A DNA stretch of 58,470 bases from an uncultured Candidatus Saccharibacteria bacterium (GCA_964503755.1 CAZDBO010000002.1:194261-252730), one strand, 5' to 3'. Positions 4,894 to 48,015 are shown, counted from the first letter of the stretch. Made by a program: numbers and translations. Notes: generated by a model from the letters alone, not told the origin.

Positions 4894-4963
4894 AGACTTA
4901 ATTATAAATTAAAGTGTTTCATTTAGCACTTTAATATGATTTAATTACACTTAAGAAAAAATA

Positions 4964-7105
4964 ATGAATACTAATAAAAAATTTGAATTAGATTATAATT
5001 TACCGGTTGCGCAGTATGAAGATATCATTATAGAAAAACTTCAAACATCCAATAACATAATTATAGTAGGGGATACTGGATCAGGAAAAACAACTCAGAT
5101 CCCCTTGATACTAATAAATCAATTCACTGACGCCAAAATTGTTGTAACAGAACCTCGCAGGATAGCAGCAACGTCTCTTTGTAATTATCTTTCACAGTGG
5201 ACGCTCACTACACCTGGAGATTTGATTGGATACAAAATAAGATTTGAAGAGAAAAAAAGCGAAAAAACCAAATTACTTTTCGCAACTGATGGAATTTTAC
5301 TGAGAGAATGTTTATTTGATCCTTTACTTTTGAAATACGACATTATAATGGTCGATGAGGCACACGAGAGAGGAATTAATACAGACTTTTTAATAGGATT
5401 ATTAGTACAAATCCAGAATAAACGGAATACAGAAAACCACAAACCACTCAAAATAATTGTTACATCAGCTACATTAGAAGAAGAAAAATTTATTAAATTC
5501 TTCGAAGAAAATGCTATATATCCTCCAGAGATTATCAGAGTACCAGGTCGCAATTATGATGTAGATGCGTATTTACTAAAAGAAGAAGTCAATGATTTTT
5601 ATAAACAAATAGTAACCGCTCTAAAATACATTATCAACAACAAAATACCATCAAATTTCATATACGATGATACTCTTAGTACAAAAGGAAACATAGAAAA
5701 TAACAATACTACATACAAATATAATAATATTTTAATTTTCTTACCAGGTAAAAGGGAAATAAATCTGACTAAAAATCTTATTCAAGAACAAATTCGTGAT
5801 ATTGATGTTTTAACAGTACATTCCGAATTGCCAATTCAAGAGCAAAACGAAATTTTCAAACAAATTACAAAAACAACAGCCATTTTAGCAACAAATATTG
5901 CCGAAACATCACTTACGATACCAAATGTCAAATATATTATCGATACAGGACTTATTAAATCAATGGAATACGACACAAATAGTGGGATAAAATCTTTAAA
6001 AACACATTATCATTCAAAGCATGGAATACTTCAGAGACGGGGTAGGGCAGGAAGGCTATGCCATGGTATATATCTGGGTTTATTTACAAATAGTCAATAT
6101 AACGATTTTTTAGAATATTCTATTCCTGAAATCTTACGATCCAAACTAAACGAAATAACTCTGTTACTTATATCTTTGGGAATAAAAGAAATAGAGAATT
6201 TTCATTTTATAGATAAACCTAAAAATTCATTTATCAAAAAATCTATCGAAGAGTTAGTATCCATTGGGGCTATAACTAAAAAAAGAATAATAACGGACAA
6301 AGGACTAAAACTGTTATCAATGCCCTTGGATCCATTTATCGGTAATATAATATTAGAAGCTCAGAACGAAGGAGTTGTATATGAAATATGTACTTTAATT
6401 CCACTTTTTGAGTCTAAACCATTATTTTACGAACTAAATGTATCAATATTAAATAAAATATATGGAAAACATATCGATAAATTTAATAGTCAAGAAGAAT
6501 TAATAGATCACATATATAGAAGTAGAGAAAGCATAGTAAATCAAAAATCAGACTATCTAACTTATATAAAATTGATAAATAAACTTTCTTATCACAATTA
6601 TTCTACAGATTGGTGTGATCTCTATGGTGTGAATGGTGAAGCATTATTAGAATGTATCAAAATCCGTGATGATCTTCTTAAACTAGCTGAAGAAAATAAT
6701 ATCCGTATAAATAAAAATATCAACTTCTATTCGCCTAAAATAGACATCGTTCTCTTTAAAACACTTAAGTACAATTTATTAATTAGAATAGGTAAAAACA
6801 AATTTAGAGCTTTGAATCACAAAAATATGATTGTAAAAATAAATCCGGGCAGTATTTTATATAACAATGCAAATACAAATTTACTAATTTCAAACGAGAT
6901 CATTCAAATAGACGATATCTATCAATATTCGCGATCTTATAGTGTGCGTTTAGCTCATTCTATAGATATAAAAATAATTCAGAGATTATCTCCAAAACTT
7001 TATCAAAAAATAATTAGACAAAAATTTAACAAAAAACATAGAAAATTTTACGTCAAAGGTAAAAAACGATATAAAAACCGTCAAATAAGAAAGTATAAAC
7101 ATTAA
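4964..7105 (+). CDS. hrpA: DEAH-box RNA helicase, HrpA-like
   Basis: GDTGSGKTTQ, DEAHER, TSAT, ATNIAETSLT, QRRGRAGR; HA2-like region; very basic C-terminal tail. Confidence 0.85.
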   Translation: MNTNKKFELDYNLPVAQYEDIIIEKLQTSNNIIIVGDTGSGKTTQIPLILINQFTDAKIVVTEPRRIAATSLCNYLSQWTLTTPGDLIGYKIRFEEKKSEKTKLLFATDGILLRECLFDPLLLKYDIIMVDEAHERGINTDFLIGLLVQIQNKRNTENHKPLKIIVTSATLEEEKFIKFFEENAIYPPEIIRVPGRNYDVDAYLLKEEVNDFYKQIVTALKYIINNKIPSNFIYDDTLSTKGNIENNNTTYKYNNILIFLPGKREINLTKNLIQEQIRDIDVLTVHSELPIQEQNEIFKQITKTTAILATNIAETSLTIPNVKYIIDTGLIKSMEYDTNSGIKSLKTHYHSKHGILQRRGRAGRLCHGIYLGLFTNSQYNDFLEYSIPEILRSKLNEITLLLISLGIKEIENFHFIDKPKNSFIKKSIEELVSIGAITKKRIITDKGLKLLSMPLDPFIGNIILEAQNEGVVYEICTLIPLFESKPLFYELNVSILNKIYGKHIDKFNSQEELIDHIYRSRESIVNQKSDYLTYIKLINKLSYHNYSTDWCDLYGVNGEALLECIKIRDDLLKLAEENNIRINKNINFYSPKIDIVLFKTLKYNLLIRIGKNKFRALNHKNMIVKINPGSILYNNANTNLLISNEIIQIDDIYQYSRSYSVRLAHSIDIKIIQRLSPKLYQKIIRQKFNKKHRKFYVKGKKRYKNRQIRKYKH

Positions 7106-8394
7106 TATGGTATAGGGAATTTTTTATTTAATTCTGCAATTTCGTTTCGTATTCTATTTTTCAATTTATCATCCTTAGGATTTCTGCACACTTTTACTAT
7201 ACATTCAGCTAAAAAATCTACTTCTTTTTCTTTGTATCCTCTAGTAGTAATAGCCGGTGTTCCAATACGTATTCCACTTGGATTTACTGGAGAACGTGTA
7301 TCAAAAGGTATTGTACTTTTACTAACAGTAATGCCTGACTCATCTAAAGCTTCTTGTATAGTCTTTCCCGAATATCCAAATGACCTAACACTATCAAATA
7401 TTATCATATGATTATCGGTACCATCTGTATACATTATTATTCCATTATCTTTGAAAACTCTTTCAAATAATTTTGCGTTATTAACCACTTGTTTAGCATA
7501 TTCCTTAAAAGACTCTTGCAACGCCTCGCCAAAGGCCACCGCTTTAGCATATATCAAATTCATTATCGGACCTCCTTGGATACCTGGAAATACTGCTCTA
7601 TCAATAAGAGTGGGCAAATTTCTTATACTTTTTTTAACTTTTTTCAAAGGATTACTAACTCTACCTTTTGAAAGAATTAAACCCCCCCTAGGACCTCTTA
7701 ATGTTTTATGAGTCGTACTGGAAACAACATGAAACCCATAATCAAAAGGATTTCGCATAATACCTGCAGATATCAATCCAGCAATATGTGCAATATCAGC
7801 CCAGAGTACAGCACCTATCTCTTGTCCAATTTCTGCAAATTTAGCATACTCTATATCTCGTGGATACGCAGAATAACCAACCAAAATCATTTTTGGCTTA
7901 TGTTTTCTCGCTAAATCCCGTATTTTATCAAAATCAAATTGACCTGTCTCAAAATCTTTGACTGTATAACGCACAAAGTTATAAACTTTTGACATAAATG
8001 TAACTGGACTACCATGAGTCAAATGTCCACCATGCGATAGTTCAAATCCTAAAATAGTATCACCAGGCTCTAGGTATGCAGTTAATACAGAAATATTGGC
8101 TATAGCGCCTGATAATGGTTGAACATTAGCGTGATCACAATTAAAAAGTTTACAAGCTCTTTCAATAGCAAATTTTTCTATCTGATCTGTAAACTCTTGG
8201 CCACCATAATATCTTTTACCAGGATAACCCTCAGAATACTTATTTGTAAATACTGTCCGCATTGCTTCTAATACCGCCTTAGAGACATAATTTTCTGATG
8301 CTATTAGTTCTACACCATCTTGTTGTCTTTTTATTTCACCAATTAACAAATCATAAAGCAATCTATCTTGGTTTTTGATATTCTCAAAGTTCAT
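7102..8394 (-). CDS. glyA: Serine hydroxymethyltransferase
   Basis: ELIASENY, NKYSEGYPGKRYYGG, GGHLTHG, TTHKTLRGPRGG (PLP lysine). Confidence 0.98.
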   Translation of the reverse strand: MNFENIKNQDRLLYDLLIGEIKRQQDGVELIASENYVSKAVLEAMRTVFTNKYSEGYPGKRYYGGQEFTDQIEKFAIERACKLFNCDHANVQPLSGAIANISVLTAYLEPGDTILGFELSHGGHLTHGSPVTFMSKVYNFVRYTVKDFETGQFDFDKIRDLARKHKPKMILVGYSAYPRDIEYAKFAEIGQEIGAVLWADIAHIAGLISAGIMRNPFDYGFHVVSSTTHKTLRGPRGGLILSKGRVSNPLKKVKKSIRNLPTLIDRAVFPGIQGGPIMNLIYAKAVAFGEALQESFKEYAKQVVNNAKLFERVFKDNGIIMYTDGTDNHMIIFDSVRSFGYSGKTIQEALDESGITVSKSTIPFDTRSPVNPSGIRIGTPAITTRGYKEKEVDFLAECIVKVCRNPKDDKLKNRIRNEIAELNKKFPIPY

Positions 8395-47338: not shown

Positions 47339-47978
47339 TAATTATTTTATTGAAAAGGTTTTCAGAGATTACTTTTTTAGTGACCAATTCATCTAACGTA
47401 CTATACGGTCTATTTTGTATAATTTTTTGTGCTGTTACAGGCCCTATTCCCTCTAATCTTTCTAATTCTTCTTGTGAAGCACTATTTATACTTATTTTTG
47501 ATGTATTAGTCTGTTCTTCCACGTTTTCTTCGTCTTGTACTACTGTCATATTATTTTGAAAACGAAATGGAATGTAAATTTTCTGTCCATCAACAAGCTT
47601 TTGTGCTCTGTTTATTTTTTGAGCAACATAAACAAGATCCACATCATCGTGTAATCCACCAGCAATATTAATAGCATCAATTATTCTGTCTCCTGATTTT
47701 AAAGTATAAACTCCTGGTTTATTTACTGCACCATTAATATCTATCACTATGTATTGAATATTATTTATTTCGGCCTTGTTTTGAGTTCTTGAATTCCTAT
47801 CAGAACTACTAAATATAGTATTCTCTATCTGATTATAATACTTTACAAATACAAAACCTCCCAATACAATAATCAAAAAGACAACAATTAAATTAAGATA
47901 AAAAACAATATTCTCTCTATTCTGAGAGAAAAATTGTAGAACACGATCTTTGGCAAAAAAGATCTTGTCTTTAAACAT
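47322..47978 (-). CDS. comEA: ComEA DNA receptor (SLBB + HhH)
   Basis: TM, VIDINGAVNKPGVY..GDRI.DAI..AGG, ISINSASQEELERLEGIGPVTAQKII. Confidence 0.93.
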   Translation of the reverse strand: MFKDKIFFAKDRVLQFFSQNRENIVFYLNLIVVFLIIVLGGFVFVKYYNQIENTIFSSSDRNSRTQNKAEINNIQYIVIDINGAVNKPGVYTLKSGDRIIDAINIAGGLHDDVDLVYVAQKINRAQKLVDGQKIYIPFRFQNNMTVVQDEENVEEQTNTSKISINSASQEELERLEGIGPVTAQKIIQNRPYSTLDELVTKKVISENLFNKIINEIEL

Positions 47979-48015
47979 AGTTTATTATCTAATCAAAATA
48001 TCATAAAATCAACAA

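Follow-up and report, generated by a model that had tools for sequence, protein, structure and literature searches.

In group C of the GeneMarkS-2 classification, leaderless messages are confined to the first genes of operons and the Pribnow box lies 6-8 nucleotides (nt) from the start codon (PMC6028130). This type has been shown experimentally in Mycobacterium tuberculosis (PMC3898074) and Deinococcus deserti (PMC4007540). The distance from the -10 box to the transcription start is usually about 7 nt (PMC12641261), and in the leaderless genes of M. tuberculosis it is 6-8 nt (PMC6028130). Among bacteria of the candidate phyla radiation (CPR), loss of the anti-Shine-Dalgarno (anti-SD) sequence has been reported only for a subgroup of Parcubacteria (PMC9297842), and in the full-text literature, GeneMarkS-2 species lists not covered, we found nothing linking leaderless mRNAs to CPR, Patescibacteria, Saccharibacteria or Dojkabacteria. 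Here we describe a stretch of 58,470 nt (CAZDBO010000002.1:194261-252730), referred to as the window, in which -10 boxes stand a few nucleotides before the start codons of most transcription units, so placed that the mRNAs of these units appear to begin at, or very close to, the AUG.

GyrA of the window shares 92% identity with its counterpart in a Candidatus Dojkabacteria metagenome-assembled genome (L001), and for the homologues of GyrA, RuvB and SHMT found at 50-94% identity every label given by a source is Dojkabacteria or WS6. On these protein identities the window is assigned to Candidatus Dojkabacteria, a member of the CPR. It is part of a contig of 252,730 nt, and a look-up with its last protein, aimed at sequence beyond its end, matched no record. 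Relatives were obtained by protein searches and exact-protein look-ups, and three of them span nearly the whole window, with nucleotide identities of 82% (L001), 85-91% (L168) and 81% (L171). The window sequence itself was present in subsurface metagenomes (DNA metagenomes only), and a scan of metagenome contigs with GyrA gave no close Dojkabacteria relative, the top match being 45%.

The position of the boxes was evaluated on automatic gene calls, in which the longest open reading frame (ORF) was shifted to its first ATG and left uncurated. Genes with an upstream gap of at least 30 nt were considered first genes (n = 21) and the remainder internal genes (n = 25), and a box was defined as a hexamer that differs from TATAAT in no more than one position, never A2 or T6, and lies at a spacer of 5-10 nt before the ATG. 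By this rule 12 of the 21 first genes carried a box. When the same 45-nt upstream regions were shuffled 2000 times preserving dinucleotides, 3.7 ± 1.7 first genes were boxed, with a maximum of 10, and no shuffle reached 12. Windows of equal width at 17-34 nt upstream gave 2-3 boxed first genes, and the reverse-complement orientation gave 2 against the 12 found forward. Among internal genes the box was present in 3 of 25 (Fisher p = 0.0016), one of these being ung, a divergent first gene misclassed by the automatic rule, and among co-directional internal genes in 2 of 21. The baseline for all 1989 ATG trinucleotides was 8.5% boxed (p = 4e-8). Exact TATAAT occurred 5 times in the 126 positions formed by spacers 5-10 of the 21 first genes (binomial p = 3e-7). 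When the best -10/-35/TGn site was sought over spacers 0-30, 12 of 21 automatic units had it at 5-10 nt (p = 1e-4), compared with 9-17% for internal genes, Bacteroidales loci and proteobacterial loci; with curated starts, the best-promoter search over the same range placed 15 of 25 units at 6-9 nt. The positioning of the boxes is real and beyond chance.

A prior reading of the sequence by itself, the sequence-only reading, had noticed such boxes between 4894 and 48015, judged their recurrence unlikely by chance and proposed positional enrichment against shuffled controls as a check. The peak at 5-10 nt bears this out, and the pattern reaches past the coordinates it had given, from the box at 183-188 to the box at 56145-56150. 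Its estimate of 0.002 TATAAT per position has to be corrected, the measured frequency being 0.0011 in the window (126 sites, both strands) and 0.003 in intergenic DNA.

Considering that TANNNT is common in DNA of 30% GC content and that one-mismatch boxes occur there at 1.4-1.8% of positions, the arrangement might be thought a by-product of AT-rich intergenic composition and start-codon choice. A consensus promoter scan of 1-20000 (20 kb) found 118 sites, equal in practice to the 120.7 of shuffled sequence. Since the scan count did not exceed the shuffles, the signal is the position of the boxes relative to starts and not their number, and on position the shuffle, positional, orientation and all-ATG controls all reject chance (p from 1e-4 to 4e-8). 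The automatic test is also free of curated starts, and the boxes are selectively conserved in three relatives. We rejected this explanation on the controls and the conservation, and consider it scarcely credible.

Start codons were then curated by comparison with the relatives. For dprA the start is 37869, since L001 and L168 have AGG in place of the upstream ATG 37908; for pilB it is ATG 31746, since GTG 31743 is replaced by GCA in L001; and for porA it is ATG 49986, which in L168 is separated from TTG 49977 by a stop codon. Judged by these alignments the longest-ORF rule is wrong for dprA, pilB and porA, and it is probably wrong also for efp, the pilin gene and the hypothetical gene at 8421. 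PilM, the pilin, EF-P and other proteins enter their Pfam domains within residues 1-7, from which it follows that the true starts are not far downstream; in the pilin, the N_methyl motif begins at residue 6-7, so its start cannot be further downstream. With the curated starts, 19 of 25 transcription units had a box at 5-10 nt, all 19 of them starting with ATG. The spacer was 5-8 nt in 13 units and 9-10 nt in 6, with a peak at about 6-9 nt, and it was 12 nt for glyA and for a gene of 1788 amino acids (aa).

The composition of the boxes is that of -10 elements. Aligned, they read T19 A20 T13 A19 A16 T19 of 21, A2 and T6 being near-invariant, as sigma-70-type promoters require. TGn preceded 7 of the 21 boxes against 5.8% expected (p = 0.001 at 6 of 21, the TGc of tRNA-His being left uncounted), and T, T and G were enriched 17 nt upstream, forming a degenerate TTG(ACA). 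Near-consensus -35 elements were present at pilM, the response-regulator gene, pilB and efp (TTGACA or TTGACT) and at the pilin gene (TTGCAT). An extended -10 is common to both tRNA genes, which are untranslated: TGaTATAAT at 27140..27148 (-), 9 nt before the mature 5' end of tRNA-Pro (27130), and TGcTATAAT at 41190..41198 (-), 18 nt before the 5' end of tRNA-His (41171), the latter being TGtTATAAT in L168. The sequence-only reading had seen TGnTATAAT before the two tRNA genes, and this holds at the distances given here.

Conservation was concentrated in the boxes. In the relatives 118 of 126 box positions were identical (94%), against 134 of 179 spacer positions (75%) and 475 of 651 other intergenic positions (73%) (Fisher p = 5e-8). 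The gyrA and gyrB boxes appeared as conserved islands amid diverged intergenic sequence, and at gyrB and xer the spacer sequence was replaced with its length kept. Insertions and deletions kept the box close to the ATG, the spacer changing from 8 to 6 nt at pepF, 9 to 6 at hpf, 10 to 9 at pilM and 12 to 5 at the 1788-aa gene. Because the boxes are orientation-specific, restricted to first genes and tRNA genes, accompanied by TGn and a weak -35, and selectively conserved in relatives, these sequence properties support their being sigma-70-type promoters and not translation signals or chance AT-rich words.

The SD core (GGAG, GAGG or AGGA at 4-13 nt upstream) was found before none of the 21 first genes, in agreement with the sequence-only reading, which had seen none at the genes it listed. 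Before internal genes it was found in 2 of 25 (40361 and 53706), which is background level, the control value being 1.0. Genes are closely packed: 21 co-directional internal junctions comprised 10 overlaps of 4-19 nt (five of them of 4 nt) and 11 gaps of 0-14 nt. The median gap before first genes was 43 nt, and divergent start codons were separated by 18 nt (dprA/ung), 37 nt (comEA/nfo) and 43 nt (hpf/yidD). Gaps this short leave no room for ordinary leaders, and any other promoter would have to sit inside the neighbouring gene.

Taking into account that a genome devoid of SD sequences might need some other signal, the TATAAT-like words could instead be translation signals on longer mRNAs, serving as an A/U-rich enhancer or as a ribosome-binding motif of the non-SD kind known from GeneMarkS-2 group B; more distant Dojkabacteria do show -10-like words before some closely spaced genes. 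Group B, the Bacteroidota type, has its motif before all genes, internal ones included; in the window few internal genes have the box, although ribosomes must enter there as well, and the tRNA genes carry it too. TGn and a TTGACA at 17 nt have no translational role, and the short intergenic distances give the promoter no other place. We regard this explanation as very unlikely.

Our preferred reading is that the boxes would be -10 elements of housekeeping (sigma-70-type) promoters, from which RNA polymerase would start transcribing on the A of the AUG or 1-5 nt ahead of it. With a box-to-start distance of about 7 nt, spacers of 5-8 nt put +1 on, or adjoining, the A of the ATG, and it is from this distance that we infer a transcription start at the AUG. 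The first genes of most operons (about 13 of 25 units at 5-8 nt, and 6-8 more at 9-12 nt) would then yield leaderless or nearly leaderless mRNA, whose 5'-terminal AUG would presumably be engaged by the 70S/initiator-tRNA pathway, as is known for other leaderless mRNAs. Cistrons further down, overlapping or at most 14 nt away, would be translated by termination-reinitiation coupling, and SD pairing would take almost no part in initiation. Apart from the two tRNAs the Rfam scan of the window returned nothing, neither leaders nor riboswitches, so it gives no argument for long 5' untranslated regions (UTRs). We put at roughly 75% the probability that in the majority of these transcription units the leader is missing or no longer than 5 nt.

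Several observations weigh against this reading. In about one unit in three the spacer measures 9-12 nt, which predicts leaders of 1-5 nt and mRNAs not strictly leaderless. Three to six units fall outside the pattern, and the poor fits include yidD (16 nt), glyA and the 1788-aa gene (both 12 nt), a DEAD helicase gene (about 23 nt), the pilT-like gene, which has a (TA)n tract, and pilB, with its poor -10. Many boxes, such as those of gyrA, pepF, dprA and nfo, have no recognisable -35, about 2-4 of the individual box assignments are expected by chance, and the curated starts of 8421, efp and the pilin gene were picked partly for a nearby box. RNA runs searched for the window sequence gave no match, and in three wastewater metatranscriptomes, which contain 5-10% of the words of a Saccharibacteria locus (L074), the contigs were short and too sparse to reveal 5' ends, and no pile-ups of these were seen. 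Finally, in Dojkabacteria at 57-61% GyrA identity the gyrA TATAAT is separated from the ATG by 11, 11, 16 and 20 nt, so conservation of the spacing is not strict.

An alternative is a regime of short leaders, in which the promoters are real, transcription starts several bases before the AUG, and initiation proceeds on an unstructured A/U-rich leader independently of SD, in the manner of Bacteroidota or Mycoplasma. It would account for the third of units with spacers of 9-12 nt and for the A/T-rich spacers, and it agrees with the 57-61% relatives, where 31 of 74 first genes have the box somewhere from 5 to 16 nt and SD is almost absent. However, the mode of the spacers, 6-8 nt (13 units), puts +1 on the A of the ATG or on the preceding base (PMC6028130; PMC12641261), insertions and deletions in relatives shift the spacers toward 5-6 nt and not away, and leaders of 0-3 nt are functionally leaderless anyway. 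This alternative is improbable in our judgement, if less so than the two discussed above. As to the leaderless regime proposed by the sequence-only reading, the promoter role is supported and the box distance matches that of leaderless genes (PMC6028130), but a leader of strictly zero length is not predicted for the third of units at 9-12 nt.

Over the 57-61% Dojkabacteria loci as a whole the spacing is looser. A box at 5-10 nt was present in 17 of 74 first genes versus 7-10 in controls (about twofold), and SD was present in 3-9%. The upstream regions of gyrA in these relatives had no full SD core, and L167 has GGAAG 3 nt before the ATG. Its sequences suggest that this clade is poor in SD and has leaders that are short and of varying length, and next to it the clade of the window looks like the tight extreme. 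In GC-richer Dojkabacteria (L164-L166; 50-53% GyrA identity) gyrA is preceded at 9-10 nt by AAGGAG or AAGGAA. The idea that these form an SD-led clade was dropped, the SD core being found, on the pipelines' own gene calls, in only 3 of 21 first and 3 of 39 internal genes. A 16S gene was looked for in the Dojkabacteria loci compared and none was found; it was present only in the Saccharibacteria loci.

In the Saccharibacteria loci there was a sharp TGnTATAAT peak at 6-9 nt before first genes. With orthologues collapsed, it corresponded to 13.2 of 70 first-gene families (about 19%) against 4.2 in controls, and to 0.1 of 26 internal families; an example is TGcTATAAT-7-ATG before a small protein family, conserved across many genomes. 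SD was found in 84% of the largest first-gene cluster (43 members, putatively GyrA) and in 24-65% of large internal families, and the 16S 3' end bears an intact CCUCCU anti-SD. Saccharibacteria therefore show a mixed regime, the box at about 19% of families together with SD, in contrast with the window, which appears close to all-leaderless and is SD-poor. From their sequences and positions, promoters of the leaderless type are present in at least two CPR classes. In L023, L044, L054, L074, L078 and other Saccharibacteria the 16S gene lies about 2 kb after gyrA and its anti-SD is the canonical one, GGATTACCTCCTTTCT. A good many of the contigs stop some 3 kb past gyrA, perhaps through an assembly break at the rRNA operon.

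By comparison with the systems described, the window resembles group C (Actinobacteria and Deinococcus-Thermus) in its short, fixed distance from the -10 to the start, its limitation to ATG-started first genes without SD, its weak -35 and its frequent extended -10. Group C genomes, however, are GC-rich, with 25-50% of operons predicted leaderless (47-60% of mRNAs as measured in D. deserti), whereas the window has 30% GC and about 50-75% of its units fit. Group C also keeps SD on the remaining and internal genes, and in the window SD is at background, internal genes included (2 of 25). Two of the traits of group C, the localised -10 and the restriction to first genes, were found here, and another, SD on the other genes, was not. 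Mycoplasma offers another likeness, with its small AT-rich genome, strong -10 and weak -35, an SD that is largely dispensable and 5' UTRs that are short or missing; in Mycoplasma pneumoniae, as in other AT-rich genomes of reduced size, SD sequences are reportedly few and many leaders very short or absent. Mycoplasma belongs to another phylum, and the tight 6-9 nt peak with its conservation is documented here only for the Dojkabacteria clade. Archaea, both haloarchaeal and others (GeneMarkS-2 group D, PMC6028130), share the leaderless majority of operons and the closely packed downstream genes, but their TATA box is located about 26 nt upstream and serves another initiation machinery, unlike the bacterial -10 at 6-9 nt. 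The architecture inferred for the window is thus that of a group C-like leaderless system, known in kind, which seems unusually pervasive and SD-free here.

The window has a GC content of 27-33% and holds about 48 tightly packed genes and the two tRNAs, with Pfam names for most genes. These include genes of replication and repair (gyrB, gyrA, dprA, ung, xer, ruvCAB and nfo), a type IV pilus cluster (pilM, pilins, pilB, the pilT-like gene and pilC), the competence genes comEA and comEC, and also def, a holB-like gene, pepF, porAB, rluD, efp, glyA, hpf, yidD and ftsW.

Going through the boxes from the left end, TAAATT with TGc in front, at 183..188 (+), lies 6 nt before ATG 195 of a 391-aa protein, and the region TGCTAAATTATTAA(T/C)ATG is kept in L171. 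In L171, at about 19600-19660, just past the left end of the window, TATAAT-6-ATG opens a mini-ORF of 7 codons (MSEKHHE*) before the called gene, which may be a leaderless upstream ORF. TAAAAT at 2641..2646 (-) lies 9 nt before ATG 2631 of the hpf-like gene (S30AE); L171 retains the box with a 3-nt deletion in the spacer. TATAAT at 4901..4906 (-), 7 nt before ATG 4893 of a 209-aa hypothetical protein, is conserved in L171. The extended -10 TGtTATAAT at 8403..8411 (+; hexamer 8406-8411), 9 nt before ATG 8421 of a hypothetical protein, is also conserved there, with an altered spacer sequence. It was possible to see that glyA (ATG 8394, -) and the 8421 gene have in common a palindromic box centred on TTATAA, read as TATTAT 12 nt before glyA. 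Upstream of the 1788-aa gene, 14407-14445 differs from L171 by a 12-nt indel, the -10-to-ATG spacer being 12 nt in the window and 5 nt in L171. TAAAAT at 16369..16374 (-) precedes the gyrB ATG 16362 by 6 nt; in L171 the flanks and the spacer have diverged (CTGTTT to CAAACT), and the box and the 6-nt length are unchanged.

In the pilus region, TATAAT at 19315..19320 (-), with TTGACA 15 nt upstream, lies 10 nt before the pilM ATG 19304, and both hexamers are conserved in L001, where the box-ATG spacer is 9 nt. TAAATT at 23671..23676 (-), with TTGACA 17 nt upstream, lies 8 nt before the response-regulator ATG 23662; both hexamers are conserved in L001 and the intervening sequence is variable. TATTGT at 26569..26574 (-), with TTGCAT 17 nt upstream, lies 7 nt before the pilin-like ATG 26561. 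The gyrA box, TATAAT at 30528..30533 (-), 7 nt before ATG 30520, is the sole conserved block of a 68-nt intergenic region otherwise diverged in L001, and the N-terminus of GyrA aligns with relatives from residue 1-2. The extended -10 TGcTATGAT at 31715..31723 (-) lies 9 nt before the holB-like ATG 31705. TTGACA-17-AAAACT at 31710..31737 (+), 8 nt before the pilB ATG 31746, combines a good -35 with a poor -10, and its assignment is uncertain. A (TA)n tract at 33572-33586 abuts the ATG of the gene for the pilT-like ATPase and is 6 nt shorter in L001, so the promoter-start distance of this gene differs between close relatives.

Further right, TAAAAT at 37877..37882 (-), 7 nt before the dprA ATG 37869 (the second ATG), and TAGAAT at 37873..37878 (+), 9 nt before the ung ATG 37888, overlap within 37873-37882, between the divergent start codons of the two genes. 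TATAAT at 38575..38580 (+), 8 nt before the pepF ATG 38589, is invariant in L001 and L168, where the spacer is 6 nt. The extended -10 TGgTATAAT at 42266..42274 (-) lies 7 nt before the xer ATG 42258; L168 conserves the box, with the spacer changed from TTAAAAT to CAAATAT and the upstream region diverged. GATAAT at 47984..47989 (-), with TTGATT 17 nt upstream, lies 5 nt before the comEA ATG 47978, and TAAAAT at 48004..48009 (+) lies 6 nt before the nfo ATG 48016. The last three are TATATT at 49973..49978 (+), 7 nt before the porA ATG 49986; TAAAAT at 55504..55509 (-), 6 nt before ATG 55497 of a zinc-ribbon protein; and TTGACT-17-TGaTATAAA at 56145..56178 (-), 9 nt before the efp ATG 56135. The exact TATAAT boxes listed by the sequence-only reading (the 4893 gene, gyrA, xer, pepF, 8421 and pilM) were recovered at the coordinates and distances it gave, as were its near-consensus boxes at gyrB and nfo (TAAAAT, 6 nt), dprA (TAAAAT, 7 nt) and ung (TAGAAT, 9 nt); for the holB-like gene the near-consensus box was there, but with a spacer of 9 nt in place of the 10 nt claimed.

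Next to xer there is a non-coding stretch of 727 nt (42259-42985), which contains at 42359-42460 (+) a conserved TTGACA, a strong hairpin and a T-run. The hairpin, 42403-42447 (+), is formed by GCTGTATACA...TGTATACAGC, and in L168 it is kept with changes in the loop only. The segment 42359-42470, including a small upstream stem-loop, folds with -27.9 kcal/mol. A candidate for a small RNA or an attenuator, the 42359-42460 element had no Rfam match at the gathering score; the ORF 42359-42637, which starts with TTG, is probably spurious. A second hairpin, 42733-42757 (+), is followed by a T-run on the + strand. A third, 42917-42956, has a loop of variable length in L168 and is likely a terminator, since it lies just past the stop of the comEA-comEC-ruvCAB operon (-). 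Elsewhere, two very large ORFs, 9040-14406 (-; 1788 aa, of equal length in L171) and 19344-23255 (-; 1303 aa), had no Pfam match, and the TTG ORF of 162 codons at 26601-27089 (-), which overlaps tRNA-Pro (27054-27130), is almost certainly no gene.

In CPR bacteria the ribosomes are reduced and the biogenesis factors few. A wider proposal, which we advance tentatively and which is rather doubtful as a whole, is that this lineage has all but given up SD initiation, with half to three quarters of its units having no leader or one of at most 5 nt and the rest of each operon depending on termination-reinitiation, about as extreme a case as any described in Bacteria; that the spacing was tightened within the class; and that leaderless initiation is general and overlooked in the CPR. 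The tightening is proposed because the 57-61% relatives have looser spacing, and the extension to the CPR because Saccharibacteria show the arrangement too. In practical terms, gene finders that reward SD sequences will misplace starts in such genomes, and a -10 box at 6-9 nt upstream would be a better predictor of starts for Dojkabacteria and perhaps for other CPR. The compact modules of promoter plus start could also be of use for engineering CPR bacteria. If the proposal is true, such a lineage, living on leaderless initiation and coupling, would lend itself to the question of how much of the initiation apparatus bacteria can do without.

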